Under the pieces are notes generated by a model, which did no database searches, was not told the origin of the DNA, and was given only the letters and a program-made list of their open reading frames with translations. 64,000 nucleotides of DNA from Nemertoderma westbladi. Taxonomy: Eukaryota > Animalia > Xenacoelomorpha. Positions 31,753 to 62,215 of this stretch are shown here, piece by piece. The stretch covers positions 6,787 to 70,786 of the forward strand of contig JAUCBJ010000974.1 of assembly GCA_032718475.1 (NCBI GenBank), written 5' to 3'. Numbering within the stretch: the first letter of the stretch is position 1; each line of letters starts with the position of its first letter. The position numbers and the translations under genes were made by a program.

Positions 31753-32372
31753 TGTTAGCGTATTCAATTCCGCTAACACCCCACAAAGTAAGCCGTTAAG
31801 CAATATTGGGGGCCACGAGGTTGGGTAACCAACCACTGTTGCCACCCCAACAAAGTGGGAAGGATAAACACACAATAGGGGTCAGGGGCCACACCCCTGA
31901 CCGAGAGAGAGTAGCAGTAGTGAAGGGAAACACTCCAAAGGGCGCCAACAGGGATATTAGCCAATGGGGGGCAGGCACCACCGGCTAGGTACCGCAATAA
32001 CGGCCAAACCGTGCAATGTATTTTATTAGGTATCAGTGATTCTTAGTTCAGTTATCTCATTGTGTTTGTCAGTTAGCTAGGGTAGAGCAGAGACTTCTAT
32101 TACCGTCCTCGCCTACCACCATTATCTGTACATACCGTAGTACTTCAATTGTTATCTATCCATTTTATACTATACCCATCTCAACGTTTATATTATACCT
32201 TCATACATATTACCGAACATCAGAACTCTTAACGAACCTTTTCACATACACGGCGGGGACGCGTAGGTAGAAAACTCAAACGGATAAATTGGGATCCGTA
32301 GATCCCGTCACAGTAATAGAACACCAGCTGCTACCCATATAAGCTATCGATCTAAAGACAAACTCCAAAGAG

Positions 32373-37575: not shown

Positions 37576-37684
37576 AGTGGAGTTAGAGTGTAGTTTAGTC
37601 GTCCAAGTCTTGGACTGAGGGGGGTGGGATTGAGGGCGAGACGCCCTTCCCACACATAAAAGTAAAAAATAAAATAAATAAAAA

Positions 37685-38112: not shown

Positions 38113-39840
38113 ATAGGGGTAGAAGGGATATGTATAATATGGATTGTTCGAAGAGACAGTAACAAAATACCCTGCAATATCTTACTGTAAAGTTTGTGAA
38201 TCAAATCATAAATCCGACCTTCTCACCAAAACAGTAAACTCTAAGTAAGCGAATATATATTGCAGTATCGGTCTCTTATAACCGGTGAGGCAGAAAACAG
38301 TCTACGAACAGACAAACTTCGATAAAACAAAATCCCGCGCAGCGAATCCTAAAATCAGGCTGACTCACTGACGGAGTAAGGGGCTCGTATACTTTGCCGC
38401 GGTGTGATTTATATGGTTGGGCGAGAAAGATGCTAGCTAGGTGCAGAAAGGTCTAACTAGCGGGCAAAGCACAGTATGGACAAAAATTATTTTATATATT
38501 TTGAGGTGTAAATAATTTCTAACGCGCGTGTGTCTTGATTCTAAACAGTCAAAAGTCAGTTTTGCTCCTTCATATATATAATTACTGGGTCCGGTGTGCA
38601 TTTTACAAATATTCTAATTTTGTAACTTGTAGGTCCAATACTCACGAATGATAAGGCTCCTTCCCCCTTTGTGTATTTCCAGGACTCAAATTCAGGCATA
38701 AGGTTAATACTACACCCAGAATTCGTCAATTTTAATTTACCAGGTCCCTAATACTAAGAAGAAATGTGTTAGTTTACTACAGTAGGCGTACAGTTACTAA
38801 TAGCTAGCCTGGTGTTCTTATCTAGAATTTTGGCTGCCTAGATGTGCACGGCAACTTCCTAACAGAATGTTGGCGGGGAGACGGTAGATGTTAGTATCCC
38901 TAAATAGCCTCAATTTATTTGCGCCTAGTTGTAAACTGCCCTACCGCCTGAACGGTACAATCCCAATTCAGGTAAAACACAGTAACTCTTCTGGCCTACA
39001 AGTTCTAATGCAATGGACACCGTTGTACTACAAACAGTCACAGACGCACCTGTACTTAGCAAGAGTTAGGCGTACAGTTTGCTGCACCCTACCAATGTGT
39101 ATGCCTTGTACCGGTGTGCCTGCGTCCTATCTGTGTACTAGTATCTCTGCCTGCTCTCCCCCCGTAGGAATATGAAGGTCTACTGTGGGTTTTTTCTCTG
39201 AATTAAGACAGTACGGTCCCTAGATGTAATTTTTAGCACACAGCGTGTCACTACCTCTACCTTCGATCTTTGGTCTTATACTTAGGTAGCAAGGCATTGA
39301 ACGCTGTCTAACCTTTCAGGCGATGGGCGAATAACTCAAGAGTGATATTGTGGGTTGTCTCCTTCTACATTCCTCAGATGTTCTCGTTCATCGCTGTGGC
39401 CCGATGTCTAGCCTGCCATCCTGTCCCTCAGTTAGGTTCACCGTGGTAAAACATGATAAAAAAAAAGGGCAGATGTAACAAGTATTTCTAACTTTATTAC
39501 AGAATATATACGTAAATGTAACAAGAAACTAATAGATAACTAATAAAGATTAGGATAAGCAAGAATGATTGATACACTAAGAGTGAGAGATTATTAACTA
39601 ATGAACGAAATCGCACCTTTTATAGCAAATTTGTGCTGCAATCAATCGAGAAAATTCTCGATTGTTCTATGAGTTCTAATAGGTTTTTAAAGATAACTAT
39701 TGGTCCAGCGAATATATAACTTGCACGACATTGGTTACTATCTAATAACTGCAATCCCATTGGTTAATCTACTTCGAGCAAATGCAATTTAATTTGTAGT
39801 GGTTAATTTAAATGAGTTGAAACTCTGCACAAAAAATAAT

Positions 39841-39915
39841 TCGCACCTACTAGGATTCGAACTCAATACCTACTACATATAATTTCCAACGCTTTACCGA
39901 CTGAGCTACTGAACC
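39841..39915 (-). ncRNA. tRNA-derived Pol III-like unit inside the LTR of E (second copy 56618-56692)
   Basis: A box TAGCTCAGTCGG, B box GAGTTCGAATCC, T6 run 5 nt downstream; acceptor and anticodon stems do not pair. Confidence 0.6.
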
Positions 39916-40519
39916 ACTTGAATAATCATCGTACAAATAGATATAGTAAATACAAATGAGGACTTAATGTAATCTTTATAGCAAAGTTAATTCGAACAAA
40001 ATAAAATTTTCAAAATCCACGGCATTTATGAGAATATAATTCTATACCGCTCCATGAAAACAGGATATTATCGTGCATAAAATATACGGTTTTCACCAAT
40101 ACTAATCAAATTATGGAATACTTGGGACGTACTTACATATTTATAAATTAAATCTCAACAATAATACCTCTACATAATAATTCGATACAAAAATAATTAC
40201 AAATTCAAACTTTACGTATTTAAGGCTTTATTAAGTAAGTACAATATAAATCTAAATTAAATTCACCAAAATAAATCTATTGCATCTCAAATATTGCATA
40301 AATTCAAACAATCACAAATACTAATACTACTTAGATATAAAACAAATTACATAAGTTCGGAATAAATCACAAGAAAGGCTCACAAGTCTTCCGTCTGCTC
40401 TTGCCTTCTATTTAATGTAAATACAAATACTGCTTCTTTATAAAAGATAAATTGCATACTATTCGAAACAATAAATTGCGTAAGTTTGGAATGACTACAA
40501 ATATAGCACTTTCTAAATA

Positions 40520-40947: not shown

Positions 40948-43900
40948 TTAACGCTTAGCGGATCGAGCCCTGCCGCGTCCTCGAAAACTGCGTATCGGTG
41001 ATTTAGCTCGTGATATGGGACTTGTGGGGCGAGCCACTGGTTTACTTTGGACGTTGGGAGATGGTACGACCATTTCCTCACATATTCGTCTCTTAGTTAT
41101 CCCAAATCCTCGTCCAATCCCTCGTGACCGATCTGTTGTATCTACCGCTGGTAAAACGTCTGGGAACGCGCGAGAAGCGGACGACGCAGACCCAAGAGAA
41201 GCTTGCGCCCCCTTTTGATCAGCTGGTATATGTCCCGATCCTCCTTGCGGTTCTCTGGGAAGCGAAACCGTATCCCGAGTAATTTGAATAGTCGGTTCGT
41301 ATCCCCTTCGTTCTTCAACATTGATAGTTTTCTTTAATTGTTGGCCCACTTTCTGAACCCTTATGATCCTGTGCTGTCCGTCCTCCCGAGGGTGACGTGC
41401 AGACGGCGCGACCGGAGTAGCTGGCACGTTGGTCGCCTTTAGGACCTCCTCTTCCTCGAATACGCTCGCTCGTATACGTTTATGGTAGAACGAGGCTCGG
41501 TACGCCCATGCGACGGTTAACCAAGCTCCCTTATTTCGCTTTTCCGTTCGGAAACGATCAAATTCACCATATGTGATACGATTGACTACTTTCTGGAAGT
41601 TCCATGTATTCTTATTGTCCGGGTGAATCTGTAACAAGTATTCGCGCACAACTCGAAATCCACTATCGTGAGGCAAATATCAACTACCTCGATTAGTTCG
41701 TCATATTGTGGCATAGCGGAGATATATCCTTCCGACTGTGCTCTCATCGGGAATCGTCTTCTTTGTGCCGATACATGTTCGTCAGCTAAATCTTCCCAAT
41801 CATCAAACAGTTTTCTCACGAGTTTTACAGATTCGTGTTCGTAAGGTATGTCTCGCAATTGACATTCAGATGCTCGATGTCCCTTTATATTGCAATATGT
41901 GCATTGAGCCATAAATCTCCAGCAAGTATAAAATGTATGGGACCCTTGATCTCCACACCATCCACAGATTAGTTGAGTTGTAGTAATGTGCTTTCCACTG
42001 CACTTTGTCGAATGATGTCCAGCGACGCCACATTTACCACACATCGTATTAGCAGGGTACCACACTCGCTCATATATAAGATCGCCAATGGGTCGAGCGC
42101 TTCCTCCCACACTATAGTCATAATCGTCTGGGTCGATAGGTTGGTATGTTTCATAAGGTTGTATGCAAACTACAGCATCTGTTGCTTCTAGTTGTCGAAT
42201 CTCCGTCTGAGATTTCTTCGGGAGGTTCCTTTCAATCTCAAGAAATTCCTCTAAAGGATCATCGATGGCCGTCGTTACTTCGAAATCATCACCTAAGTGA
42301 CCGATAGGCGCACGCGTCTGCCGTGATTCGTCCGTAAGCTCCACGATACGTTCTCCTTCATAGGGTAACAATGTAAACATAGATGGTCTTTCGATAAGAG
42401 ATCCCGCACAGCGAAGATACACGTCTCGAAATATACTAAATCCTGCTCGAGTGAAGGCATTACACTGAGCGTCGGAATTGTAGAAGGGTTCGAGAAACCG
42501 TCTAAACACATCGGTATGAATTCTCCCTTCCGCGTAGAATGTATGATCTTCTCCGAGGCAAAGTGGATGTCATTTAAGAGTCCGAGACACAATGTCGGCG
42601 ACTAAGCAAACATTCACTGATGACTCTATCGCTAAATAATATTGTAGTACCGCTCTTGGAGGTGAAGTAATAGCCCAATATACGCATCCTCTCCATTTGA
42701 GCTGTGATTCAAACTCATTTATATCTGGAGTATCACCTTCTCCATACGTTTCGATATACTTTGTTCTTTTACTTTCCTTGTAATCCCAATTAAACATCAA
42801 GTAGGAAATGTATCCAGTTCCGGTTTTCTGAGTATCATACTCACGGAAGTATCCTTGTTCTATAGACCACAGTATAAGAGGTCGAGTGTCGACGTAAGGT
42901 GTCGGTAATCGGTCGTCACTGTCCGACATGCCGGCGAAGTCGCTAATTAAGTCCTCTCTTACTCCTGATCCAATCTTTACAACAGTTTTATCTAAAATCA
43001 TATTTCTCACCATCTTCGGTAACATTCTAGCATCGATATTGCAAGCCTGGTCCATTTTCTTTACTATATTAGTGATGAAATGGTGCCGCTTGGTAGTTCC
43101 TGGAGGTATAAGGCATTCGCTTGTCGCTCCTTTATCTACTGAAAACGTGCAAAACTCCGTCTGCCGCTCTAATTTGTATAGTCTTGGAGGTTAGACTCTG
43201 CTGATGGCTGCCGCCCTCGTTATCATAAAACATGTAACCGTTTTCCTGAAACGATCTAAACGTCCTATTCCATTCGTCCAATAATTCTTCCGAAGGTTGC
43301 CAAATCTTCTCTATGTCTTTCTCGTCCTCGAAACGAATGACTTTACCTTGCCAGTCCGCAGCGATATCTGTATCCGACTCAAAGGTTCCTGTTCCAATCC
43401 ATAAGCTAATTGTTTTGGTTAAATATCCTTTCAGGTTACTCGGAGCTATATCAGCGCCAGCTCTATCCAGTTCCCTAAAGTCTTGAATATGAGGCGGAAC
43501 ATTATGCACGACCTTTTGCGTAATATGTCTACGTAAATCATATATCTTAACCATATCGCTTAGAACAACTGCAGGAAGAAACTCTAAGTTCGAAATGATT
43601 TCCGGATGATCCACAATAGGTATTTCATACGTTGTATCTTGTCGAACTGGTATACTAATAGGGAAATTGAGTGTCGTACTCAATGGTTTCGTAGTTGAAG
43701 TACTATACGGTTGCATTTCTCTTGTACTTTCCGGGGATGCAATCTGTAGTCTCTGAATAACGTTTTGAGCAAAATTTATACTCTCGAAAACTTCCGGTGT
43801 CATCTCCTTAGCTGAAGTTTGATCGTGTGACGTCCAATGGTAAGGTAGGCTCGCAAGTCTTCCGCCCCATTCTTCCATCTTACCTTTCTCGAAAGCCTTG

Positions 43901-44337
43901 TAGGCTCTGTATAGGCTAAGAGCTTCTTTCTTTTCGCGGGTTGACTGAGTCGCCTCGTCCAGCGTAAGTTCGAATACATCGGGTTCAACAACCTTAGGTG
44001 GGTAAACAACAATTTCTCCCGCCTTTGGTGCAGTCATAGCGAATGAATGATATGGATTCGATAAAGGATACCCTCCTTCCTGGTAGCGTAGTTGTTGATG
44101 GTTCGAACACCTCGCCAATATCGGTTCGGGATTTTCCTTATTCAAACGCATCGGAATCGCATTTCGTTGTTCGTGCATACAAGCACCGCATTGATAATAA
44201 AGTTTATAAACTGAAAATGCTTCCTTTGTTTCTCTATCGTCCCCTCGAGTTCGTCTGTAAAGATGCATTCCATCGAATTCATCGCGTACCGCGGGCATAG
44301 GTTCGTGCGCCTTCAGGTATTGCATAGTATGATACAA
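40948..44337 (-). pseudogene. Accessory ORF of E: DEDDy-like 3'-5' exonuclease plus three CCHC zinc knuckles (two frameshifts, one TGA)
   Basis: YMFYDNEG, TIQIRAADG, LPKMVRNMILDKTVVKIGSGVRED, YVDTRPL, YYLAIES; CGKCGVAGHHSTKC, CGWCGDQGSHTFYTC, CTYCNIKGHRASEC; colinear with 57223..59832. Confidence 0.8.
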
Positions 44338-47089
44338 ACGACTAATTTCGGTATCGGGATCTTCGCTAATATCTCCCGTATCACATAAATCGGCTCTCCT
44401 TGTATCCCCTTCGCCATTATTAGAGGTATGGTTACATGATCATACTACTAGAGGGAATACAACAGAGTTTATTGTTAGTTGTGAGGAGATGTGAGAGTTT
44501 TCGTCTGCCCTTTTGGCTCGACAACGCTCTAACCTCCTACCCATAGCCTAAGATCTAGGGTTTCTTTAATGACACGCTGCTTCTTATCTAAAATTTTTGC
44601 CGAAATAAAAACGAATTTGGGCTAAACTGGCTGTGAGTCTAAAATACTCACCTTTTGATCCCAAACTATTATCAGAAAATAAGCAATCAAGAATTAGTAA
44701 TAAATATAGGGAAGTCTATTATTCGACGTAACTTATTGAAACAAGACCGTGTAAAATTTAATTAAAATTTAGAAAGGCTCGCGAGTCTTCCTTTTTCTTG
44801 TTTCTCTAATTTTAAGTTCCACCCGACTGTACCCTGAAATCTATTCACTGGAGAAAATTTTAAAATTTTTCAAATCCAAATGGATTGTCTAAAATTTCGA
44901 AAATGTCTCAATATTGTGAGTTCCAAGTAGAATTCCATTTCTTATACCTACAAATCCCGCTCCTATGTGACACATAAGGGTACTACCCTCAATGTTCACA
45001 TATAAAGACAATGGAATTCTACCGCTGTCTTTACTACGGTGTACAGGTACGTGGAAATCTATTTGTAAACTCCTTACTATTTACTAACATTTGTTGGAGA
45101 CTTGTAATCTCCAGACTTGTTTCGCGTCTCTTCAAGAAGTACGAGACGTTGAGTCGGTCTGTCTACTGTACGACCGTCAATTGTCCGTACAGTCACGGTT
45201 CTTGTCACTCCATCCATAGATGGATGTGTGTCTAAAATTACACCTGTTATCCAGAAGCGTCTTTTTAGATTCACTTCTGCCAACAGCACGTGATCTCCCG
45301 CTCTTAAAGTGCGAGTTTTGTTGTACCAGGTTGTTCTGGCAGAAATAGAGGGCAAATAATGATTTTGCCATATTTCCCAGAATTTGTTAGCTAATAGTTG
45401 CATGATTTTCCACGCTTTTCTACGGTAGCTATCGCATTCTATTGGAATAGAAATAGGCATTAATGTAGTCGGTGCCTGCATAAGCAGGTGTGCTGGTGTT
45501 AAAGCAAACTGGGATTGTTTGTTATCGGGTACTAATACTATTGGTCTAGTATTTATTATTGCCTCGATTTCAACAAACAATGTTGTCAGTTGGTCGTCTG
45601 TCAAGATGTGGTTTACTGGAATTACTTTTGCCATGGCTGTTTTTATAGATCTAATCAATCTCTCCCAGACTCCGCCTCTCCATGGACTATCTGGAGGATT
45701 AAACTTCCAAACAATCTTGTAAGGACGTAGTTCGTTTGAGATTTGATCATGATCTAATTTCTTAAAGGCTCTAGCAATTTCATTTCGAGCACCAACAAAG
45801 TTTGTACCTTGGTCTGAGTACAAGCATTTTACTAGTCCGCGTCTAGCGATAAATCGCCGCAATGCTAGTATAAAAGCGTTGGTGGAAAGATCCATCACAC
45901 GTTCAATATGAACTGCCCTACTGGACATGCATGTGAAAATCAGTCCCCAGCGTTTTACTATTATACGTACACGTTTCGTATGTATGGGACCAAAGCAGTC
46001 AATTCCAGTCTCTGTGAAGGGTGGTCTGAATGCCTGTAGTCGTGCTTGTGGAAGTTCACTCATTTCTTGGGTACTTATTCTAGAATGTACCTTCTTACAA
46101 ATAATACACATACGCGTCACTGAACTTAACGCTTTACTGGGTCTAATTAATACAAATCTTGTACGTAAGTATGAAAGACAGTGGTGTCTTCCAGCGTGTT
46201 TCAGATGTAAATGTGCATCCAGTATCATTGCACGTTGTAATTCGTGATGTTGCGGTATTATTATTGGGTACCTAAAATCAGTATTAAAGTCAATGTTTTG
46301 AAGCCGAGATTTATGACAAATTAAGCCATTATAAATTATCGGACTCCAACTCAATATTGGTGACGACTTGATTGGTTGACCTTGACTTATAGATGTGAAT
46401 TCGCGTGCGAAATATCGCAATTGGTAATGGCGAATTAATTTAATTTCACATCTGTCAATCTCAGTCAATGTGAGTCGACGTGTAAAGTCGCGTTTGCCTT
46501 TAACGTATTGTACAAAACGTACAATCCACGCTAATTTTCGGCACGCGTTGGTCCAAGAATCTGTCAAATTTACAATACGGTCGACGTAAGTATTTGTGAC
46601 GTCATCAGGTAAGTCAATGGGGAATTTGGAAGGTTTTGTTTTACTAGATGGGCCCACGAGTCCGCCGGTAGGTATTCCCTTGTTGACTGTTGATCCGTCC
46701 GGGTCTACAAGTAATTTGTCCTTCTTCGTCTTCTTACCTTGATTGTCAGTACTTTGTGTGTCGATCCCTAATGGTGGTTTTAACTCTATGGGATCACTGG
46801 GTTTCGGTAAATTTATTTTTGTGCCGATATTAATCCCAGGTTTCACCGTAGGTTGTAAGGTTGGTATGTCTCTTGAGCGTAAAGTAACACCTGTATTTAC
46901 ATTAGCGTAGGTACTACCCACATCTGTAATACATGAGGTTTCACTGTACTTATGGTTACTCAAGGGTGTCAAGTTTGGTAGTTTGTCAATAGAAGGCCGC
47001 TCCAATAGGGAAACTGCGGCTTTACTATGTGTTGCTATGTTACTAATGTCTGGTAGAACATCTTGTGAAATGTCTGATAAAATGTTTCG

Positions 47090-47248
47090 CGGAACATCCG
47101 GCGAAACGTCTAGTGACATGTCTGGCAAAATGTCTGGTTGACCGTCTGGTAACATGTCTGGTTGACCGTCTGGCGATACGTCTGGTTGACCGTCTGGCGA
47201 TACGTCTGGTAACATGTCTGGTTGACCGTCTGGCGATACGTCTGGTTG
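47090..47248 (-). repeat. 12-bp coding repeat (PDVS/PDGQ/PDML) in an expanded RNase H-integrase linker
   Basis: Repeated GTCTGG-based 12-mers. Confidence 0.85.
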
Positions 47249-50200
47249 AGAAAGGCTCGCAAGTCTTCCTGCCCTAACTTTGTGAGTTATATTCTTCCAT
47301 TTCGCCTTTGGTTTCTTCTTAAGTTTCGCCGTTGTCTTTTTCTTTGCTTTACCTTTCTTTGGTTTTTTAATTTCGGCGTCCTTAGGAATAGTATTAGACT
47401 TGTTATCGTATAGTGGCGGCCAATGTTGTGTTGCTCTTTGTAAGAATTGTGGTCCGTGTTGCCAAAATTTCTTGTTTTCCGGTTTACAGAATTCCTCAGG
47501 CATCATTCCTCGCGACGCAATATCAGCTGGATTTTGTGGTCCGGGACAATGTCGCCAATCTTCCTTTATTGAACGGTCTAGAATTTCTGCACGATGGTTA
47601 GCTACGAATGTCTTGAATTCAAGTGTGTCGTTGTTTATATAAAATAAAACTAACGTCGCGTCAGTCCAATAAAATATCTGTAAACTTGACTGTAATTCAG
47701 TCTGTATGAGGTTTACAATTGTCGTTGACAGAGTTGCGGCTTGTAGCTCAGCGCGTGGTGTCGTCATATACTTAGTAGGCATTGTTTTAGCCTTAGAAGT
47801 AATGAGCGATACATCAAACTCATCTGAGTCTACTTGTCTGCGCAAATACGCTGTCACTCCAAAGCCGTTGTCACTGGCGTCGGAAAAACAATGTAATTCT
47901 AAGTTGTCAGGAAATGTCGTCTGTAATGGAAAGTACACCCGGGGTATGGAATAATCCTCTAGCGAAGATAATTGCGCCTCCCAAGTCTTCCATAAGTCCA
48001 CTTGTTCGTTTGAGATCGGTCCGTCCCATGTCAGTCCATCTTTCCAAATACTGCGCATATATATTCTTGCTTGCAGTATTATTGGGCTGATGAAACCTAA
48101 TGGATCGAACAGTCTGCTTAGTTTCGACAAGCAAGACCTCTTTGTCAGAGAATCCCCTTCAGCGTCCAGTTTTACTTTCACTCAAAAGTTGTCTGTGTTC
48201 GGGTCCCAAAATAGTCCCAACACCTTGGTCGTCGGCAGTGGTTCGAACTCTAAGTCAATGTCCCCACCCCCACGTTCAGTCGTTTCGAATGAATTTACTA
48301 ATTCGGCGCTGTTTGAGGCAAACTTAGTGAGGTTAAAACCTCCGCCTGCTAAACAGTCCCGTAATTGATGTGCTACTGTTATAGCACGTTCTACTGTGTC
48401 ACAACTTTGTAATCCATCGTCTACATAAAAGTCTCGTTCTACGATCTCGATTACCTCTGGGTCATACATATGTTTCTGATCCCTAGCGGTCTGTTTTAGG
48501 GCGTACATAGTGCAGTTTGGGCTGTCTCTGGCACCGAAAACGCGAACTTGCATTTGGTAAGTCGCCGGTGGTTGACTTAAGTCTCCATCCGGGTACCAGA
48601 GGAACCTCAAACTGTCTCTGTCTCGCTCTAACGCTCGCACTTGGTGAAACATCGCTTCGACGTCACAAGTAAATGCTACTTGGCGCTGACGGAAGCGCAT
48701 AATCACCCCCATGAGATAATTATTCATGTTTGGTCCGTCCATCAACTCACTGTTGAGAGACATTCCTTCAAACAGGGCCGCGCAGTCGTTAACTACGCGT
48801 ACTTTATCAGGTTTGTCGGGGTGTCTCACGTAGTGATGTGGCAAATAGTATGTCTGGTCTGTCACAATCTCTGGGTTAGTCATTTTGATAGCGTATCCTT
48901 TTGTTAAATACGTCTCCATCTGGGTATTATACTGCAGATGGGCTTTCTCGTCCTTTAATAAACGTTGTCGTATTGAGTGTAAACGTCTTAAGGCTAGCGG
49001 ATAGTTATTGATAAGTTTAGGGCTTTGGCTACGCCATAGCATCCCTACCTCATAATGTCCGTCTTTCGTCTGGCGGATAGTATCTTCCATGATCTTCAAA
49101 GATTGTTTCTCTTGTTCCGACATACACGGTTCATAACTACCTGGTTCGGCTGTATCTTGTTCCAACCACCTGATAGTTTTCTCTGTTAATTCCTTGTCTA
49201 GTGCGGCTTGTTCTACTTGACAGTTCCTTAATGCGTCGTCATCGATATCGACGGGCATCGTTAATGTTATTGGTGTAGATAGACTCGCAAGCCTTCCGGC
49301 GTTATCATCTGTCGTCGATGGAACCTCTGCCTGACTCCGCTTCTTCTCAATCTCTATACTAACCTTGTGGATTGGCTGCTCTTTGTGACTTATCGTATTT
49401 GCTACACACGTCGTACCTGTAACATTGTCGTGTTTTGTCGAACGTAGTGTAGTATAGTCTATGTCAGGTGAAAAGGAATGAATCGAAGTTGTAGTTAGTA
49501 AACTACATGTACTTTGTACATCGTCTTCCTCATCACTTATATCCAGTGTGCGCACAGGCGCTCGAGTATACCACCCTATCGGAGTTCTACAGGCGTAAGC
49601 GTTTCCCGCTACGACTACCGATGGTCTGGTTTCCCACACTTGATGTAAGTTGAATTGGTCCGTCCCGATCAGCATTGCTACCGACCGATAATTAACAGGA
49701 CATTCGGGTACACCAAGGTGTCTGAAATACTTACGGTCCTCTAAGGATTGCTCCGGCACTGGACCCAGTAGATTACTAAAGTCCTTTGTGGCCGCAAAAG
49801 TTAAATCCTTAAAGGGTAACAAAGACCTCTCCTTTTCGCTATGTTGCGATTTCGGAAGAAGAGTGTCCAAGTTTAACTTAACTCGTGTCACTGGTATTGC
49901 ACGTTGTCCATGCATACTACTTACAGTGTACTTCACGTGCTTACCTTGTCTAAGGTCCGTCACGACATCAGCTACTTTCTCATGCACGTAGCTGTGAGAT
50001 GAGGCTGAATCTAGGATAGCGTAGATCCTTTTGCTCCCTTTTGTGCCAGTAATCTTAATAGGAATTACGCTGAAACCTTTTAGTTGATCAGGCGTCAGAA
50101 GAGCGATCGATGGTTGTTCGTCTCCCTCCGAGTATATGTCGTCGTCTTCAGATTCTTCACCAGAAGACCCGGATTGTTCTGGGAAGCAATCCCAAATATG

Positions 50201-51760
50201 TGTCACAAACGTTGGTGTTGTTCTTGATTCTCGTGTTGTGTAGACAGTGTTACATTTCGCTACGGCTTCCGGGTGTTCCCTAGTGAAGCGTTTTGTCGGC
50301 GTATGGCTGTCTGTGTGGAGCAGACCATCATGGTTGCGTCCACAGTAAGGACAGGTGTCCGTATTTGGGCAATCCTTGCGGACATGTCCATGTTGTGTAC
50401 ACCTCCAACAAGAATCTAACGGTCTTATTTGAAGCCGTCGTTCCTCTGAGTTTAATTCACGAAACAGATGACATCTCCTCAGCTGGTGATTGGTATACCG
50501 CTTATTAAGCCGCTCGCAGTATTGGCAACCGCTAAAGTCGGCATTCAGTTGTTGCCTGGTCTGTTTGATGCCAATAGGTGCGGACAGTTTACTACCGTTA
50601 GGAAATTGTCTTGTTTCTGTTGGTGTGGCGTAAGTGGCCGTCCTTGTGGATGTCGTCGGTTGTTTTTGTCGGTTTGATGAAGGTAAGGTGATTCCTTCTG
50701 CTACGATGTGTTGGTCAGTGTAGTTAGATCGAGTCTCTACTACTGCTTCCCTGGATATTAATAGGTACACATCCTCCAGTTTCAAGAATCCACCTCTTTC
50801 CTCCCGCTGGTATTCGATTTTTCGCCACTCCCGACGAAGTCGATGATGTAGTCTTCCTATAATTTTTAATAGGACTGTGGGAGTGTTCCCATAATCGAGT
50901 TGTCCAATAGATGTTAATGTAGTGATAGCGTTTTTAATTTCGTCAGCTAATTTAAGTAAGTCGACGGGTTTTGTAATAGCCCCCCCCTTACAGAGTTCCT
51001 CTATCACTGACTTGGCCATACTAACCGTACCTCCGTAGATTGAAGTTAAGCGATCGTATGCTAACTCGAAGGCATCTGGTACACCGACAAAGGTCTCTGC
51101 CAAACGTTTGGGTTCTCCCGATAATGTTTGAAGCAGGTAATTAAACTTCTCCCTTGATGTAAAGGCGCACACAGCGATCTGAGATTCAATGTAGTCTACG
51201 AAAGTGTGCCAATGTTTGGAGCTACCGGAAAACTTAGGTGGTTGTTGCACCGGTAGTCCTTGTCTAGCTGCGAATTTAGCTATTTCCTCGGCAACGTTCA
51301 AAGTTCCGCGTCCTGGGTTGGCAATCTGGCTGATGTTCTCTCTTCTAGGCTCTTTTCTTTGATACGATGTGTTTCTCGACGGTATTGGTCTTTGCGGAAC
51401 TTTAGGATTTCTATTGTGTTCGAATTCGGAATTTCTCGAACTGTCGGTGTGAACTTCCTCCAAGCGTTAGTCGATCTGGGCCAACTTGTTGACAACTGGT
51501 CTCAGAATGTCGGCAAATTGTTGGGTACTGATCGCGTCCGTTGGTTGTAACGCCCTTTGTATTGGTGTATTTTGTGGAGGATTATCGATAAATGAATTAT
51601 CTGAACGCTCACATTTACATTCGTCGGCCGCTCCTGTTCTAAATACCTCGCGTTCCGGGTAATCCGACTCGCTTGAAGTACTACTGTCACCTGGATACAG
51701 TGGTCGACGTGCTCGTGTCCGTTGCGTCGTTCGAATTTTAACATTCCGTTTCGGAACATC

Positions 51761-52250
51761 GTCCACTGTTCTCCGTTGTTCGGTAGGCTCACAAGTCTTC
51801 CTCGAAGTCGTAGATTGCGATGTAAACTGATTAAACGGTCGCGTGTCCACTGTTCTCCGTTGTTCGGTAGGCTCACAAGTCTTCCTCGAAGTCTTAGATT
51901 GCGATGTAAACTGATTAAACGGTCGCGTGTCCACTGTTCTCCGTTGTTCGGTAGGCTCACAAGTCTTCCTCGAAGTCGTAGATTGCGATGTAAACTGATT
52001 AAACGGTCGCGTGTCCACTGTTCTCCGTTGTTCGGTAGGCTCACAAGTCTTCCTCGAAGTCGTAGATTGCGATGTAAACTGATTAAACGGTCGCGTGTCC
52101 ACTGTTCTCCGTTGTTCGGTAGGCTCACAAGTCTTCCTCGAAGTCATAGATTGCGATGTAAACTGATTAAACGGTCGCGTGTCCACTGTTCTCCGTTGTT
52201 CGGTAGGCTCACAAGTCTTCCTCGAAGTCGTAGATTGCGATGTAAACTGA
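51761..52250 (-). repeat. 84-bp coding tandem repeat, six copies, in gag of E
   Basis: Unit TSQSTTSRKTCEPTEQRRTVDTRPFNQF; near-identical copies at 84-bp period. Confidence 0.95.
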
Positions 52251-55200
52251 ACCGGTGGTCGAGTGACAGCGTTTGAATCTAAAGGCCTTGTAGGCCTAAA
52301 CGTCTTTGGGTACGTGTAGTGCGTAACGGGTTTTGGTGTCGAAGGTGGACTCACCTGTTTTGTCGTTAGTAGTGCAGGTCCGGTCAATAAACTACTACGA
52401 TCGGTAATCGGTGGGTTACTTACCTGGACTTTCAGAATAGGCGACGACGTTGCTCTTGGCGGTATGAACTTGTCCGGAATAACAAACCTGTGTTCCGTCG
52501 CACCATGGATAGGAGAAATATTACTACTACCCGCAATCGAAACAGGTTCCTTAGTCGTAACTGGTGCAAACATAGGAGTTACTTGAGGGAATCTTTGACA
52601 TAAGTCTTTAACTAATTGTCTTTCTCGCCCAGGTGCCCCTACACTTCCTTCCTTCATTCGTTCCTGAATTTGGCGGTGCCTTACCTCTATCTGGTCCAAA
52701 TCATGTCCGTCACGAGATCTCATCAATCGATCGCGGGCTAGAAGATCCAGATTTTCCTTGGTTTTGGCTAGTTCTCTCGCCTTCCTTTCGAGTTCGAAAT
52801 GAAGTTTAACTTCTTTCTCGCGTTGTTCCGTCTGTTGTTGTTGCGCCTCGAACTCCGCTTGTCGTATAGCTGATTGAGCCTTTATTTGTCGTTTTTTCAA
52901 CTCGGCTCAGGCTTCCGAAACTCGCCTTTGTTCGTCCAACTCTGCTGCTCGTCGCTCTAAATCAGCTGCTGCTGCTCGTCGCTCTAAATCAGCTGCTGCT
53001 GCTCGTCGCTCCAACTCAGCTGCTGTCGCTCGTCGCTCCAACTCAGCTGCTGTCGCTTGTCGTTCCAACTCAGCTGCTGCTGCTTGTTGCGCTAACTCAG
53101 CTGCCGCTGTTCGCTGTACTATTTCTAACTCCAACCTTTCCATCTCAGCCACTTCCAACTCGGCTTGTTCTTGCAGATGAGAGATTCTCGCAACATTTGC
53201 AACGCGTAGTTTTTCTTCCTCTACCGCCGCTTGTACCGTTAACAGTTGAGTTTGTTCCTCAATTTCTCGTTGTTGTCTATAGTGCTGTTGTTGCTGTCTA
53301 GAAATTTCTGACGTCACTATACTTACCTCGCCAATTTCGCTGCGAATACTCACTAACGATTGGTCCAGTATTCCCGGTGCCGATTCGATTTGTACGGGTG
53401 AAGTTCCCCTCGTATATTCCGGCACGGTTTCCAAATCGCCGACGTCTTCGCCGCACATACGTAAGTGATCCGTCAGATGTTTCAATTGTCCATCCAGTCG
53501 GTACAGTTCCTGTTCTTCCTCGGGCTGTAATAACTCGTCGGAAACCGACTCACCTAGCAACTGGTCCGCTTGTTCCTGTTGTATCTGTCTAACGGTCGTC
53601 TTAAACTGAATCAGTTTCTCTCTAGCGATCATTAATTTCTCGAGGATTCTAAACTGTGTGTCCATATCCTGTCTCTGTCTAGCTAGATCTTGTAGACCAA
53701 TTAGATTATCTACAGACTTATGTACTTTACTCTGTACTCTAACCTGTAGGGTGTAGAACTCGAACCGAGACATCGGAGCGGTCAACTCGTCTAATATGCG
53801 TTGGCCTTCTCCAATACTCCTGGTAATATGCGCCATGTATCCTCCGACGCTTCTAACCACACTTTCCTGGCTTCCTACTGAACTTACCATGTCCGTTTCT
53901 CTATGTCTAGGTTGCGGGACCGTTAGAAAATCCTCGGTCCTGCCGTCGCCTCGTACTACGGCATCCGGTACTCCCGTTGGATGTACTGGTGACGCGCACG
54001 GTGTAGGTTCGGTAGGCTCACGAGTCTTCCCCTGTGGTTCTTCCGCTTCTGACTTATCCGCGTTACATGAGTCATAGTCGGTTTGTGTATTCTTCGTATA
54101 GTCTTGTTTGTCACTCATTTCGGTAGTTGTAAGTCAAGTAAAGTGAGTGTCAAAATATCAAACTTACCGTATTTTATTTCTAAACGGTATTAATTACAGT
54201 CATATAAAATTAGCCTACCGGCTGATTTTATAGCAGATGGATAAAATTAGCCTAGCGGCCAATTTTACAGCAAATAAACGTCACGGAATAAGTATATAAT
54301 AAAATTAGCCTAGCGGCCAGTTTTATAACAAATAAATCGGATAACGATATGCGTTATCAAAAGGTAAATTAAATACAATAATACGGACTAATTCAGCAAT
54401 AAACAAAGAAATCGTACGGAATGCATAAATACTTGAGACAGTGGAACCCACAATAATTTTAACTAATACGGTAATGCCTAACTTATTTATGCAACTTTTC
54501 GAACTCACCCCCTCCAATCATTCTCCAGAAAAACAGATTCCCAGATACAAACCGGACGTGAACCTTTCCGTTTCCAGCGTTGCGGACGAAGTGCGATTTT
54601 CCCAACCAAAGTTGTTGAGTTATCTATCTCCCAAACTTGCTAAACACGGTCTTGCTCTCGTTACAGTCTAGAAATGAGCTCTGAATCCTGAAAAACAAAA
54701 GAGTTAGGTTTTACTTTTACGAAAATTTTGTACCGGTACAATATGGTATTTAAACCCTTTTAAACACCGGTATTCAATTCCAAATATTTTACACGCGGTT
54801 CAGATCAAATTTTATTTCAAAAAATTAGCACTTAGCTAATCAAATATAAACTTTTACCTCAAAATACAAAATTTTTCAAATAACTTTAGTCCTACCGAAC
54901 CGTAGTTCAGTAAAACATATTCCTACTATTCGAAGAGACAGTAACAAAATACCCTGCAATATCTTACTGTAAAGTTTGTGAATCAAATCATAAATCCGAC
55001 CTTCTCACCAAAACAGTAAACTCTAAGTAAGCGAATATATATTGCAGTATCGGTCTCTTATAACCGGTGAGGCAGAAAACAGTCTACGAACGGACAAACT
55101 TCGATAAAACAAAATCCCGCGCAGCGAATCCTAAAATCAGGCTGACTCACTGACGGACTAAGGGGCTCGTATACTTTGCCGCGGTGTGATTTATATGGTT

Positions 55201-57222
55201 GGGCGAGAAAGACGCTAGCTAGGTGCAGAAAGGTCTAACTAGCGGCAAAATAAAATAATAAAATTATTTTATATATTTTGAGGTGTAAATAATTTCTAAC
55301 GCGCGTGTGTCTTGATTCTAAACAGTCAAAAGTCAGTTTTGCTCCTTCATATATATAATTACTGGGTCCGGTGTGCATTTTACAAATATTCTAATTTTGT
55401 AACTTGTAGGTCCAATACTCACGAATGATAAGGCTCCTTCCCCCTTTGTGTATTTCCAGGACTCAAATTCAGGCATAAGGTTAATACTACACCCAGAATT
55501 CGTCAATTTTAATTTACCAGGTCCCTAATACTAAGAAGAAATGTGTTAGTTTACTACAGTAGGCGTACAGTTACTAATAGCTAGCCTGGTGTTCTTATCT
55601 AGAATTTTGGCTGCCTAGATGTGCACGGCAACTTCCTAACAGAATGTTGGCGGGGACACGGTAGATGTTAGTATCCCTAAATAGCCTCAATTTATTTGCG
55701 CCTAGTTGTAAACTGCCCTACCGCCTGAACGGTACAATCCCAATTCAGGTAAAACACAGTAACTCTTCTGGCCTACAAGTTCTAATGCAATGGACACCGT
55801 TGTACTACAAACAGTCACAGACGCACCTGTACTTAGCAAGAGTTAGGCGTACAGTTTGCTGCACCCTACCAATGTGTATGCCTTGTACCGGTGTGCCTGC
55901 GTCCTATCTGTGTACTAGTATCTCTGCCTGCTCTCCCCCCGTAGGAATATGAAGGTCTACTGTGGGTTTTTTCTCTGAATTAAGACAGTATGGTCCCTAG
56001 ATGTAATTTTTAGCACACAGCGTGTCACTACCTCTACCTTCGATCTTTGGTCTTATACTTAGGTAGCAAGGCATTGAACGCTGTCTAACCTTTCAGGCGA
56101 TGGGCGAATAACTCAAGAGTGATATTGTGGGTTGTCTCCTTCTACATTCCTCAGATGTTCTCGTTCATCGCTGTGGCCCGATGTCTAGCCTGCCATCCTG
56201 TCCCTCAGTTAGGTTCACCGTGGTAAAACATGATAAAAAAAAAGGGCAGATGTAACAAGTATTTCTAACTTTATTACAGAATATATACGTAAATGTAACA
56301 AGAAACTAATAGATAACTAATAAAGATTAGGATAAGCAAGAATGATTGATACACTAAGAGTGAGAGATTATTAACTAATGAACGAAATCGCACCTTTTAT
56401 AGCAAATTTGTGCTGCAATCAATCGAGAAAATGCTCGATTGTTCTATGAGTTCTAATAGGTTTTTAAAGATAACTATTGGTCCAGCGAATATATAACTTG
56501 CACGACATTGGTTACTATCTAATAACTGCAATCCCATTGGTTAATCTACTTCGAGCAAATGCAATTTAATTTGTAGTGGTTAATTTAAATGAGTTGAAAC
56601 TCTGCACAAAAAATAATTCGCACCTACTAGGATTCGAACTCAATACCTACTACATATAATTTCCAACTCTTTACCGACTGAGCTACTGAACCACTTGAAT
56701 AATCATCGTACAAATAGATATAGTAAATACAAATGAGGACTTAATGTAATCTTTATAGCAAAGTTAATTCGAACAAAATAAAATTTTGAAAATCCACGGC
56801 ATTTATGAGAATATAATTCTATATGGATATTAGTTAGCAGTCAGTAGCGAGAGGGGGGCATATGAGTACAGTTGGATAGATCGTGTAGGCCACGCGACAT
56901 ATACTGCTGTACTGCACAGGCCCATAGAATAGGTCAGAATGTGGATTATGAAATAGAATAATCCATAAACAGTAAATAGTAGAAATAGATCAAAATAAAA
57001 TAGAATAAGAATAGGGCTAAAATTTTAACAAATTATAGTAACAGTAGGAAAGAAATTCTGGAATACAATAAAAGTAACTGACAAAACTGCAAATTAGGGT
57101 ACATCTAATAGCTTCAAAATTAAGTAGTAGGGATTTAGGCTATAAGGCGAAATTAGACAAGGAATAGGCCATTATCGGACCGTACAGACCATCCTAGCGG
57201 CATCACTCACTTATATTGCGCC

Positions 57223-59832
57223 TTGGAAAGGCACCACCTTATAGGTGAGAGATCGGGAGAGTTCGAAATGGCGGGGAAACTGATCAGGAAGAGAAAGGCG
57301 GAGTCAGGAGGAAAGGAGATACTGGTGGATTTCACCAAGAGGCATCCGGAAGAGAGGATGAGGGGATACTATGACCGGTTAGGAAAGGGTCACGCAGCAC
57401 GAGCGCTACAGGACCACTTCAGGGAGATGCATGAACAGCGGCTGGTCGGGACCTACGGGACGCCGTCGCTGGACAATGCGATCTTCGAGCATTTCCACTA
57501 CGTGGTGAAAGGGGACGAGGCGAAGTTCGGGATTCCGAAGTACGCGAGCGAGTCACCGAGGAAAGATTGGAAGAGGTTCATAGAGTCCGTCAACAGGGGA
57601 GGATACATGATCCTAGACGACGAAGGGACCGTGGAAGACGAGGAGGGTTCAAGGAGAGGATCGGCAGGATCGGCCAGGACCATACTCCTACATTTGGCCG
57701 CGCCAAATGGGGACATTTTCCTATTTGACCTGGGAACATATGGGGAGAAGGATGGGCCGAAGTTGGACCTGCTGCCGAGGGCGGTGCAGGTCCTAGTAAG
57801 GGAGAAGTCGACGACGAAAGTGGGATCGGCGATTCGCGAGGACGCGAAGAGAATCATCGGTCCGGACGCCACCAACCTCCTGGATATGCAGAAGGTCTTC
57901 ATGGCTATGACAGCACCAGACGGGTTGGGACTAGTCGGAAACACAGGCCAATACGGAGTGGTGGCAATGGGCCAGCTATTGGGGCTCGTATGCCACAAAC
58001 CGATGGACTGGGGGAAGTTCAGGGAGGAATACGGAGCAGAACTAGCGAACTCGCTAAAGTGGGGAGCGAGACCAGGAAAGCAAGAGGTGTATCAATTCCG
58101 AAGAGGAGCGATAAAGGTATATCAGAAGCGATATATCCTGCAAGAAGATTGGATAATGATAAGTTTGCTTAACTTATTCATGACCGTGGTTATCGAGAGG
58201 GAACCAGCGGCATTTCTGTTATCGGGATCACCCCTAAGCTACAGAAGAGCCTTTAAGACGGCTTTCGACGGTCTGGTAGACCACCCGGGGCTGAAGGGCG
58301 AGTCGGTGTACTACAACAGCCGACATCTGGTAGACGGGGAGATAGATACGCCGTATCAGAGATGGGAGGAGCTAGAGACGGATAGACGAGAGGCGAAGCG
58401 ACTGGAAGAAGTCGCTAGACAGGAAAGGATAGAAGCAAAGGAGAGGGAGGAGGAGGCCAGGATGCAGAGTTACGGCTTTGAGGAACAGGCGGGCTTAGAT
58501 GAACTTCGTTGGGCTTCATCAGGGAGTTCGGGGGAGTCTCTAGGGCGAGAACTGGGATGGATGGTGGGATCGCCGAAACAGTCGACGTCGGGGTTGCAAG
58601 CGATGCCCATACCAGCGGGCACCGAAGGCGACCAACCGCTAAGGAAGTTAGGGGAGCTAGAGGGATGGAGAGCTACGGGCGAAAGCCAAGGCGGGAAGGG
58701 ACATAGTGGATCCACCGGGATACCGGGGTTGGAGCCACTGCCAGAGGAGGATGAAGACGACGACGAGGTCGGAGAGATGCCGCCCATCGGGAGGATAGGC
58801 CACTCGGACACGGACTGGGTTGGCGGGAGGGTGGTGACGGCCAGTGGGGCGAGGGCCTTCTGGGATAGATCCGGCAAGCGGGCCTGGGTGCACGAGGAAC
58901 CGGCGATGGATTTCGCGGGGAGCACTATCAGGTTGGGTGAGCAACCGGGGACGGCACCACGGGTAGTATTCGGGGAGACGATGCCCGAGAGGGGCGAGGA
59001 GATCGACGTAGACAGGGACACTAACGTCCAGAAGTTCGCCTACCAGCGACTCCACAGACCACGGAGATCGCTTGGGACGAAAGACGACGTGGGGCGGGAG
59101 ACATTGGTGCTCGGCTGTGACTACTGTGGGAGACAGACCCACCAGGAAAGGAGCTGTTTGTACCGATTCCAGAAAGGGACTAGTTGTCTCTACTGCCGCG
59201 AGTCGAGCCACAGGATGGGGGCGTGTCCACGGTTGCATAACCGATGTTCGAAGTGTAACTTCCGGGGACACTACGAACGCCAGTGCGACTGGATGGATGA
59301 CGAAGAGAAGTTCAGAATCTTCGAGGAGTGGGCCGACATCGGGGCCATGACGCGGCAACGCATGAAGGCCCAGGAGTTCAAGTGGGGTTTCTTCCTTATC
59401 AATCAGGAGGCTCACTTGGAAATCATAAAGCGGAGGTTACCGTTTACCTATCAAGAGGTAGCAACGGCGGCGTCGTATGCCGGGGTGATAAATACACAAA
59501 GGTATTTGGACAGGTGGACGCCACAGAACCGAGGGGAGTTTAGGGATTTCCTGGCGGAGCACGTGCCGCGGGCAATGAAGATGATCTTATGGGACGCCAC
59601 CAGTGGGAGACAACAGGGCCATTCGGAGGGGCCACCCGCGAAGCGATATCGGGAGCTGATAACGCCGGCACCCAAGGAGCCAACGACCGGGATCAGTAAG
59701 GAGGTGGCGGCGAGAGTCCGAAGACAGAAAGCGGATCCCAGAGGAGCGGTAGTGACCAGGAAACGACCCAGGGAGGAGGACGGCAAAGGGAAAGACTTGA
59801 GGTGGTTCCCAAAGTCAGGGGGGATAAACTGA
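57223..59832 (+). CDS. Accessory ORF of D, intact 869 aa: DEDDy-like 3'-5' exonuclease plus three CCHC knuckles
   Basis: ExoI YMILDDEG; LLHLAAPNGDIFLFDL; LPRAVQVLVREKSTTKVGSAIRED (ExoII); ExoIII-like YILQED; CDYC, CLYC and CSKC knuckles; start codon uncertain. Confidence 0.85.
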   Translation: MERHHLIGERSGEFEMAGKLIRKRKAESGGKEILVDFTKRHPEERMRGYYDRLGKGHAARALQDHFREMHEQRLVGTYGTPSLDNAIFEHFHYVVKGDEAKFGIPKYASESPRKDWKRFIESVNRGGYMILDDEGTVEDEEGSRRGSAGSARTILLHLAAPNGDIFLFDLGTYGEKDGPKLDLLPRAVQVLVREKSTTKVGSAIREDAKRIIGPDATNLLDMQKVFMAMTAPDGLGLVGNTGQYGVVAMGQLLGLVCHKPMDWGKFREEYGAELANSLKWGARPGKQEVYQFRRGAIKVYQKRYILQEDWIMISLLNLFMTVVIEREPAAFLLSGSPLSYRRAFKTAFDGLVDHPGLKGESVYYNSRHLVDGEIDTPYQRWEELETDRREAKRLEEVARQERIEAKEREEEARMQSYGFEEQAGLDELRWASSGSSGESLGRELGWMVGSPKQSTSGLQAMPIPAGTEGDQPLRKLGELEGWRATGESQGGKGHSGSTGIPGLEPLPEEDEDDDEVGEMPPIGRIGHSDTDWVGGRVVTASGARAFWDRSGKRAWVHEEPAMDFAGSTIRLGEQPGTAPRVVFGETMPERGEEIDVDRDTNVQKFAYQRLHRPRRSLGTKDDVGRETLVLGCDYCGRQTHQERSCLYRFQKGTSCLYCRESSHRMGACPRLHNRCSKCNFRGHYERQCDWMDDEEKFRIFEEWADIGAMTRQRMKAQEFKWGFFLINQEAHLEIIKRRLPFTYQEVATAASYAGVINTQRYLDRWTPQNRGEFRDFLAEHVPRAMKMILWDATSGRQQGHSEGPPAKRYRELITPAPKEPTTGISKEVAARVRRQKADPRGAVVTRKRPREEDGKGKDLRWFPKSGGIN

Positions 59833-60390
59833 GACTTCGATGTGGTACGCCTGGAAGGCGCCACGTGAGACGTGCGAACTATTAAGTACGAATTTAAGTA
59901 ATCTAAATAATCAAATAAGTGCAATTTGTATGTACGTACGTAATAGCCAGTAATCTACGAGAATACATACGTTCGAAGTAAGTACTATAGTCATTCAACC
60001 TTTCTCAATTAGCTACTGGGACTGGGGGGCCAACTGACTATGGCACTATGGACGAGACACCAGACGATTTCACACTTCTTGAGTGCGACGGCACAGGAGG
60101 GGGGGTGAGACTCGTCAGAAGGGATGGGGTAGTCAAAGAGGGGTCGAGTGAAGGTGATAGTGCGGAGTACGGAGAGAGTGCGGATGCAATTCAAGTGTGG
60201 GGGGGAGGATAAGAGACTGAGTGAGGGACAGGGAAGGTGGCACTATACCCATCTCAACGTTTATATTATACCTTCATACATATTACCGAACATCAGAACT
60301 CTTAACGAAACTTTTCACATACACGGCGGGGACGCGTAGGTAGAAAACTCAAACGGATAAATCGGGATCCGTAGATCCCGTCACAGTGCC

Positions 60391-61181: not shown

Positions 61182-62215
61182 CCCTATTACCACTGGGGGG
61201 GGGGGGGGGGGGGCGAATCGGCCCATTCCTAGTTTATAGTTGCTGTAACTATGGAACCACATTACGTAAAGGCCCAATTTTTATTGAGAATTAGCCAAAT
61301 TTAATGCCGCATCTTTTGCAAAAAACGACGTTGCAATTGGATTTCTACTTTTCGATGTGGGTGCCACCTCAAAATTTGGTCTCCAGCACCAAATTTTTTG
61401 AAATTTTCGAATTTTACAAATTCATTCGTGATTTAGTAATTATTTATGTTTGGGCTATTTTTATTTATTTTTATTGGTTTGGATCACTCTAATGCTCTAT
61501 ACAAGTATGTAAGTGTAGTGGTACGTAATTTTTGGAGCACCAAAATTAGGGCGTGGCACTTTAAAATTTCAAAATTACTTTATTCGGAAAATTTACTAAA
61601 GTTTTGATTTCGAAGCATTTTTATTGGTTTTCTGGAGCGCTGAATTGATTGAAAGTAATATAGAAACCTGAAGACGTAGTGGTTCGCCATTTTTGGTGCC
61701 CCAAAATTAGGGCGTGGCACTTCAAATTTTGAAAAATACGAGATTCGGAAAATACACTAAAGTTTTGATTTCAAATTATTTTTATAGGTTTTCTGTAGCG
61801 CTGAATCGATTGAAAGTAATATAGATGCCTCAAATCCGTGGTATACGTAATTTTCGGTGCACCAAAATTAGGGCGTGGCACTTCAAATTTTCAAAATTAC
61901 TTTATTCGGAAAAAACACTAAAGTTTTGATTACAAAAAATGGCTAACCTCTAAGTCTTTAGAAAACGAAAAATTTTGTAATTTTGTCCTGGACTACTTTT
62001 ATTTTTCATCAAAATTATGAGTCACTGCTTATGAAATTTTAACTTTTTAAGGTTTGGTAGTGTTCATCTATAGTTGTTTCACCAACAGCTCAAATTTTGT
62101 AGGATTTCATTGGACGATTACAAAAATATAGTGGGTGGGCCGAATCGCCCCCCCCCCCCCCCCCCCCCCCCCAGTGGTGCTAATGGTCAAAACACCCCAG
62201 TGGTAATAAATAGGG
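61182..62215. mobile_element. piggyBac-type MITE
   Basis: TTAA on both sides; CCCTATT..AATAGGG ends; subterminal inverted poly-G/poly-C; three internal ~161-bp repeats containing CAAAATTAGGGCGTGGCACTT. Confidence 0.85.

Follow-up and report, generated by a model that had tools for sequence, protein, structure and literature searches.

Self-priming retrotransposons bounded by long terminal repeats (LTRs) are known from the Tf1/Tf2 elements of Schizosaccharomyces pombe and from the Tf1/sushi and Tcn1 groups, all Ty3/gypsy chromoviruses (PMC6317226, in the portion available). In Tf1 the primer arises when RNase H cleaves between bases 11 and 12, according to the available part of PMC7175516. The Belpaoviridae of the International Committee on Taxonomy of Viruses (ICTV) are described as primed by host tRNA, with an 18-nt primer-binding site (PBS) for tRNA-Arg or tRNA-Gly, LTRs of 0.2-1.2 kb, a length of 4.2-10 kb, and a replication cycle that is poorly understood (PMC8742986). 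Described here is a 64,000-nucleotide stretch of DNA from Nemertoderma westbladi (assembly GCA_032718475.1, contig JAUCBJ010000974.1, positions 6,787 to 70,786 of the forward strand), hereafter referred to as the window. It is eukaryotic DNA carrying nested Bel/Pao elements, designated A to E. In B, D, and E the PBS is complementary to a segment of the element's own LTR. This self-pairing is real and far beyond chance, and these elements probably prime minus-strand synthesis with a stretch of their own RNA that would be cut at the end of the helix.

The ends of the LTRs were set independently of the pairing. No TGG primer site follows the 5' LTR of B, D, or E, and in each case the LTR is followed directly by a PBS that starts with GT. 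Element A, which carries an ordinary PBS of the TGG (tRNA) type at 8318-8301 (minus strand), has no self-complement and provides an internal control. Only the TGG start of this site was seen; we take it to be of the tRNA-Tyr type. In E, the 1897-nt 5' LTR (54927-56823, minus) is followed by the PBS at 54916-54926, and a perfect 11-nt complement, the candidate 3' end of a self-primer, lies within the LTR at 55941-55951. A second copy of this complement is found at 39174-39164 in the 3' LTR (38145-40046, minus). The 560-nt 5' LTR of D (31753-32312, plus, TG...CA) precedes a PBS at 32313-32321 that is matched by a 9-nt complement at 32095-32103. The 660-nt 5' LTR of B (27070-27729, minus) is related to that of D. 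Because B has no second LTR, the end of its LTR was placed by likeness to D, and the terminus, TCCCGTCACA, is identical in the two. The PBS of B (27060-27069, minus), followed by a near-duplicate of itself, has a 10-nt complement at 27293-27302, and its helix extends by 3 bp into the terminal ACA of the LTR.

Perfect complements anchored at the first base past the LTR and reaching the observed lengths occurred in 1 (B), 12 (D), and 1 (E) of 3000 dinucleotide-shuffled LTRs and at 3 of 5339, 14 of 5257, and 13 of 14849 internal positions, respectively. The anchored complement in A is 5 nt long, a length reached in 1739 of 3000 shuffles. When the start was allowed an offset of 0-5 nt, the values were 7 (B), 20 (D), and 10 (E) of 2000. 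Swapping the PBSs among the four elements gave at most 7 nt with foreign LTRs, and the best pairing was with the own LTR. Despite the relationship between B and D, 5 of the first 9 PBS positions are different in the two, with each partner fitting its own PBS. The original prediction, made from the DNA letters of the window, had proposed precisely these points for B, D, and E, namely the absence of a TGG site with GT directly after the LTR, the complements of 10, 9, and 11 nt, and PBSs that differ while their partners co-vary; each was confirmed at the positions given above.

Since none of B, C, D, and E is intact and the match in D alone is modest (the 20 of 2000 above), it might be argued that the matches arose by chance or that a normal PBS once existed and was lost as the copies decayed. 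This is exceedingly improbable. A self-complement is present in three of three such elements in the window and in all 11 non-TGG families of the stringent set of relatives described below, and copies whose LTRs are 100% identical (L024 and L086) show it as well.

Relatives were collected through reverse transcriptase alignment as 79 loci on metagenome contigs, a selected sample from the best 80 of 550. Most of these loci have no TGG site. A short LTR match to the PBS is found right after a pyrimidine-rich tract ending in AG, and the remainder of the match ends just before an upstream GTRAG. Because a GT-AG segment interrupts it, such a split complement forms only across the predicted splice joint. 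In a first blind scan, which admitted any GTRAG...YAG joint and a target anywhere in 2.3 kb, the best match at many loci lay just after ACA or ATA. The stringent set, or tier 1, consists of 12 families whose LTR ends are fixed by the divergence of paired LTRs; L030, a duplicate of L036, and L029, in which the apparent LTR end is an indel, were left out. All but one of the 12 have no TGG site, and all 11 of these carry a self-complement, which is contiguous in one and split by a predicted GT-AG intron in ten. The remaining family, L060, is of the TGG type and has no self-complement. In nine families with a strict donor, the joint-spanning complement is perfect, 10-15 bp long, and located 0-4 nt past the LTR, and it was equaled by 0 of 2000 random internal 30-mers in each. 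L022, in which the strict donor pattern failed, has a 10-bp joint complement with a weaker donor. The interrupting segments resemble splice donors and acceptors at their ends; the predicted intron covers 1201-1276 in L036 and 2401-2549 in L063. The contiguous complement of L003 is 11 bp in length (0 of 2000). The LTRs of L003 (566-911 and 7075-7401) are 74% alike, with the PBS complement and its flanks kept in both.

The contiguous form is that of B, D, E, and six related loci. An intron that would build or extend the complement was also sought in B, D, and E and rejected, the best spliced scores being 0, 0, and 7 nt, respectively. The contiguous complements of L051 (43-54) and B (27302-27293) are strikingly alike, and the reverse transcriptase tree does not link L051 to D; convergence or a shared LTR ancestry may account for the likeness.

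A second blind scan covered 65 of the 79 loci, the other 14 being without upstream DNA. The counts refer to loci, near-copies included, and not to independent families. Spliced matches were obtained for 31 loci, contiguous matches for five, stray top matches only for two, and none for 27. The 31 spliced and five contiguous matches begin 0-5 nt after ACA or ATA. The covariation of PBS and LTR that had been predicted holds among the relatives as well: PBSs vary from family to family in step with the LTR joint of the same family. When PBSs and LTRs were mismatched, 236 of 240 pairs gave no spliced match, and two of the four exceptions involved the sister families L021 and L063. Within the starred clade formed by L020, L057, L066, L069, and L079, the first five PBS bases match, as a complement, the first five bases past the acceptor. 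In these five loci and L046, PBS positions 6-11 change together with the end of exon 1; L046 has the matching exon-1 end, its acceptor lying off the contig. The donor of L076 may be mutated.

Twenty-five further loci (L080-L104) from bacterial and archaeal genome bins served as a held-out set. These animal-type Bel/Pao elements most likely represent contaminating host DNA, and six of them have paired LTR ends. L093, L096, and L098 are of the TGG type and have no self-complement. L086, with LTRs that are 100% identical, carries a contiguous 11-bp complement (0 of 500). L091, a member of the L065 family, has a spliced complement of 12 bp, and L082 has one with a single mismatch in both LTRs. Additionally, L081, in which the LTR end is unpaired, shows a spliced complement of 11 bp, and L084 has the exon-2 half only, with no donor found. 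Outside the Bel/Pao element of L098 lies a 193-bp direct repeat (L098:2704-2896), the second copy of which is preceded by a purine tract. After the repeat comes a 15-nt stretch perfectly complementary to the repeat's own sequence (0 of 500), and the repeat possibly marks another self-primed LTR element around it.

A named member of the group, Sinbad of Schistosoma mansoni, shows the split form. In its published sequence (PMC554778, supplement 1 of the parts available), inspected by eye, the LTR ends at 386 and no TGG follows it. The PBS occupies 391-401, starting with GT 4 nt past the LTR end, and its 11-bp complement joins 8 nt that end just before the GT at 199 to 3 nt that follow the AG at 233. 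The intervening GT-AG segment (199-233) is short, 35 nt, and flatworms are known for such small introns. In B, D, and E, by comparison, the complement is contiguous. The relatives and the Sinbad sequence strongly back the proposal that these Bel/Pao elements have a self-complementary PBS and would be independent of tRNA. The original prediction had confined this property to the lineage in the window; the self-pairing stands, but it is not private to this host and spans most of the PBS-typed Bel/Pao relatives.

A tree was calculated from the reverse transcriptase and RNase H regions of 38 rows with IQ-TREE in its quick mode, stop codons being read as X; it is unrooted, and its rows are unnamed. 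A second tree of 96 rows was built with FastTree. C, D, and E group together (support of 100) on long branches, for which the tool issued a warning. The contiguous forms need five changes on the tree, at least three of which are forced by starred branches. L032, with a contiguous complement, and L074, with a split one, are sisters (support of 99) and have the same bases past the joint. The TGG elements A and L060 share one starred group with the split-type L056. Since the contiguous and split forms interleave, the elements with a GT PBS, whose possible grouping as a clade the prediction had raised, form no narrow clade. Of these forms, B, D, and E probably represent the intron-less one.

The geometry fits priming. 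The helix starts where the 3' end of a tRNA would sit and points synthesis into the unique 5' (U5) region, and it terminates with the ...AC of the primer opposite the GT of the PBS (AT opposite AT in a few families). A mechanism can be proposed in which the GT...AG segment is an intron located in the repeated (R) sequence, and its removal from the 5' copy would assemble the primer. The capped 5' part of the RNA, some tens to ~100 bases, would then fold onto the PBS, and a cut 3' of the AC, probably by the RNase H of the element's own reverse transcriptase as in Tf1, would free a 3'-OH. The strong-stop DNA would copy U5 and the rest of R before jumping to the 3' R. Inheritance of the intron would require the copy in the 3' LTR to remain unspliced; an RNA from which both copies had been removed would be reverse-transcribed into the intron-less contiguous form. 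On balance, we lean toward the reading that a large part of Bel/Pao primes with a primer assembled by the spliceosome, in which an R intron splits the complement, only the spliced 5' copy primes, the intron is transmitted through the unspliced 3' copy, and contiguous forms such as those of B, D, and E arise repeatedly from doubly spliced RNA. Intron loss is preferred over gain on mechanism only.

Inasmuch as priming is deduced here from sequence, the pairing could instead be a conserved RNA structure with another job, such as a splice-sensing switch for packaging, dimerization, or translation, with priming by a protein primer or a 2'-OH. Several PBS cores are indeed near-palindromic. The helix, however, always lies 0-5 nt past the terminal CA, the spacing of the TGG sites in A, L060, and L093; moreover, none of the five TGG elements self-pairs, and no self-pairing element has TGG at that position. 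Such another role is thus quite improbable.

TATA-like and initiator-like motifs place the start of transcription, as a motif-based guess, near 27333 in B, 32049 in D, and 56027 in E, which is ~32, 47, and 77 nt upstream of the complement, respectively. On this basis, the complement is probably internal to the transcript, by 30-80 nt or more. The register proposed initially, in which the complement lies in a TCATATT initiator context and corresponds, as in Tf1, to the first ~11 nt of the mRNA, is probably wrong. In eight of ten spliced LTRs, a poly(A) signal is found between the acceptor and the LTR end, 14-105 nt past the acceptor. This places the complement inside R rather than at the 3' end of the RNA, so that freeing a 3' end requires cleavage or trimming. 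The same signal would suit an element-encoded primer acting in trans. Such a primer would be a short (spliced) LTR transcript, either one that terminates at the poly(A) site of the 5' LTR or one produced by a solo LTR, or else a small RNA derived from that transcript by cutting; it would anneal to the PBS and be trimmed back to the helix by a 3' exonuclease. The sequence evidence for a trans primer is the same as that for the cis cut, the intramolecular helix is often disfavored in folding, and D and E carry an extra open reading frame (ORF) that likely encodes an exonuclease. On the other hand, the relatives with paired LTRs are ~6-8 kb in length and leave little room after pol for such an ORF, the fixed AC end would suit an endonucleolytic cut better than trimming, and the Tf1 precedent, in the available part of PMC7175516, is a cut in cis. 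A primer acting in trans is accordingly less likely, though a real contender to the cis cut, and with both routes taken together it is very probable that the primer is encoded by the element. The exonuclease ORF as a required part of the mechanism is unsupported, because of the limited room in these relatives. Similar extra ORFs past pol are found in the rotifer LTR elements Juno and Vesta, whose ORF3 is a DEDDy 3'-5' exonuclease (PMC5408684). They belong to other LTR lineages, the likeness to the ORFs of D and E is by description, and the available text of that paper reports no link between ORF3 and priming.

Several observations weigh against self-priming by a cis cut as formulated above. 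The position of the complement within the transcript probably differs from the +1 position in Tf1, and no poly(A) hexamer follows the complement in B or D. Folding gives a mixed picture. In favor of the mechanism, the helix has a probability of 0.99 in B and 0.91 in E, and in the unspliced relatives both halves of the complement are at or below 0.1 in 13 of 14. Against it, the helix has a probability of only 0.26 in D, and among relatives spliced in silico, it reaches at least 0.7 in only 5 of 14 and falls below 0.1 in 7 of 14. Tf1 has an accessory stem next to its PBS helix. In B, D, and E, pairing extended beyond the core helix was considered and discarded: extension into the flanks is not above chance (322, 131, and 293 of 2000, respectively), nor is a U5 stem (880 of 2000 for B and 508 of 2000 for E), bar that of D (29 of 2000, uncorrected). 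The 27 scanned loci without a match also count here. Among the negatives and strays of that scan, L008, L020, L058, and L025 are positive with other settings, L060 is of the TGG type, and several are without the needed part of the LTR or were missed by the filter. The automatic test likewise missed the held-out L091 and L082, both of which were recognized by visual inspection and confirmed at relaxed settings. C, D, and E are long-branched, with the closest spliced relative at no more than 45% identity, and an unrooted tree cannot separate intron loss from gain. Splicing, start site, cut, and primer are all read from the DNA rather than from transcripts. Lastly, the tRNA comparison covered the tRNA-Ile of the window only, with a match of 2 nt. 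Half-tRNA primers exist in Copia lineages (PMC6317226, available portion), and the PBSs might in principle recognize pieces from inside host tRNAs, or other small RNAs of the host, the LTR match being secondary. This is very unlikely, since PBS sequences are highly diverse from family to family and follow the LTR joint of their own element rather than one fixed host RNA.

With respect to the known systems, B, D, and E resemble the Tf1/sushi group in having no tRNA site and ~11 nt of their own LTR RNA complementary to the PBS (the comparison resting on the available part of the literature). They differ in that their proteins are those of Bel/Pao, not of a Ty3/gypsy chromovirus with its reverse transcriptase and integrase, and in that most of their Bel/Pao relatives form the complement only across a predicted splice joint. 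The feature would work like Tf1 self-priming while falling outside the Tf1 group; the split primer, the most remarkable version of it, occurs in the relatives and not in the window. As in the TAR lineage of Ty1/copia (Houba, Osr-1), self-priming is a prediction; TAR is a lineage of plant Copia elements for which the available portion of PMC6317226 describes no split primer. The Belpaoviridae/Semotivirus plan is shared by the Bel/Pao elements of the window as regards domain order (DUF1759, Pao peptidase, reverse transcriptase, integrase, DUF5641), LTRs, polypurine tract, and a 5-bp target duplication. The 18-nt tRNA PBS is present in form in A and is absent from B, D, E, and most typed relatives, and because of this absence, B, D, and E, though Bel/Pao by their proteins, are a variant outside the published description of priming.

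In the literature searched, which included the available text of PMC3601003, no report of self-priming or of a split primer in Bel/Pao was found; most subscription journals, Repbase Reports, and the GyDB text fell outside the search, such that a prior mention is possible. The main text of the Sinbad paper, as available, does not mention a PBS, tRNA, or self-priming (PMC554778), nor do the available parts of PMC3118150 mention a primer, PBS, or tRNA, or those of PMC6238403 a PBS, primer, tRNA, or intron. The signature in Sinbad has gone unnoticed since 2005. If correct, the present reading would extend self-priming to all three LTR superfamilies, with self-primed elements being common in this Bel/Pao sample. 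Initiation from a primer made by splicing would be new for reverse transcription, would tie it to RNA processing, and would distinguish the two copies of R. Such elements might be freed from host control via tRNA fragments, and the failure of PBS-based annotation on them would be explained.

Within the window, element A spans ~8963-1587 (minus). Its 3' LTR appears to keep four bases past the terminal CA (1587-1590, minus) that match the spacer before its PBS (8320-8323, minus); the 3' end looks as if it was integrated untrimmed, and A sits in a CT microsatellite. The Pao-type domain order of protease, reverse transcriptase, RNase H, and integrase is seen in A and E (PF03564, PF05380, PF17921, and PF18701). 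B consists of its LTR (27729-27070) and an interrupted gag akin to that of D (minus). Its 3' end is missing, and with gag only, it is assigned to Bel/Pao through this likeness. C is a pol remnant (27900-31747, minus, the left end being approximate) that resumes past 60391, and no LTR or PBS of C was seen within the window. At 27779-28944 (minus), the integrase end of C is duplicated in tandem (582 bp).

D (31753-60385, plus) was inserted into C and is flanked by the target duplication GTGCC (31748-31752 and 60386-60390). Its gag-pol (32343-37580, plus, end approximate) is interrupted by stop codons and frameshifts and contains PF05380, PF00078, and PF17921. Beyond the nested E lies the extra ORF of D (57157-59832, plus), 891 aa in length, in which Cys/His knuckles accompany a probable 3'-5' exonuclease domain. 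It has no Pfam match at an E of 0.01; the Atlas score is 0.93, with PF01612 on 50% of the matching cluster, and the exonuclease call is a lead only. The remnant of the D 3' LTR, its last 144 nt (60242-60385, plus), is without the complement. Over 60107-60385 (plus), the first ~415 nt of the D 3' LTR are missing, and the rest is preceded by a purine-rich stretch unlike the 5' LTR; this shape is probably the result of a later rearrangement.

E (56823-38145, minus) was inserted into D between copies of the target duplication ATCCA (56824-56828 and 38140-38144). At 18.7 kb, with LTRs of 1.9 kb, it exceeds the ICTV ranges. Its two LTRs are identical at 1881 of 1897 aligned positions and end in CA in the 3' copy and in TA at the same place in the 5' copy. 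Both LTRs (from 56823 and 40046, minus) also start with TA, not TG. The gag-pol of E (45077-54133, minus) encodes DUF1759, the Pao peptidase/RNase H region, integrase, and DUF5641, and in-frame stop codons divide it into four open stretches. The extra ORF after pol (40948-44439, minus), now in pieces, has an exonuclease-like part and Cys/His knuckles and is weakly alike to that of D (tblastn within the window, E of 7e-5 and 2e-4). E belongs to a many-copy, variable family, as judged from contigs of four runs aligned to it (40 of 201 differences listed). No relative was found among viral contigs in two scans. A tRNA-like stretch with an A-box/B-box look is located in the unique 3' (U3) region of E at ~56690-56615 (minus) and also in the 3' LTR. 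As an encoded primer it was rejected, given that it has no complementarity to the PBS, no ARAGORN call, and 0 Rfam matches at an E of 1; it is perhaps a captured short interspersed nuclear element.

Other features of the window include a non-LTR reverse transcriptase of the long interspersed nuclear element (LINE) type inserted in the gag of B (22438-24426, minus) and a second LINE-type 3' fragment of 570 bp, 96% identical, at 12994-13563 (plus). The tRNA-Ile (AAT) gene lies at 13971-14044 (minus). A host gene at 9100-12727 (plus) contains EGF-like repeats that are rich in cysteine and partly present as inverted copies, and a 687-aa ORF at 17572-19635 (minus), which has no Pfam match, gives the impression of a DNA-transposon type. 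Finally, terminal inverted repeats with G/C runs, TTAA-like flanks, and 161-bp internal repeats mark an element at ~61190-62170, which is presumably piggyBac-like.

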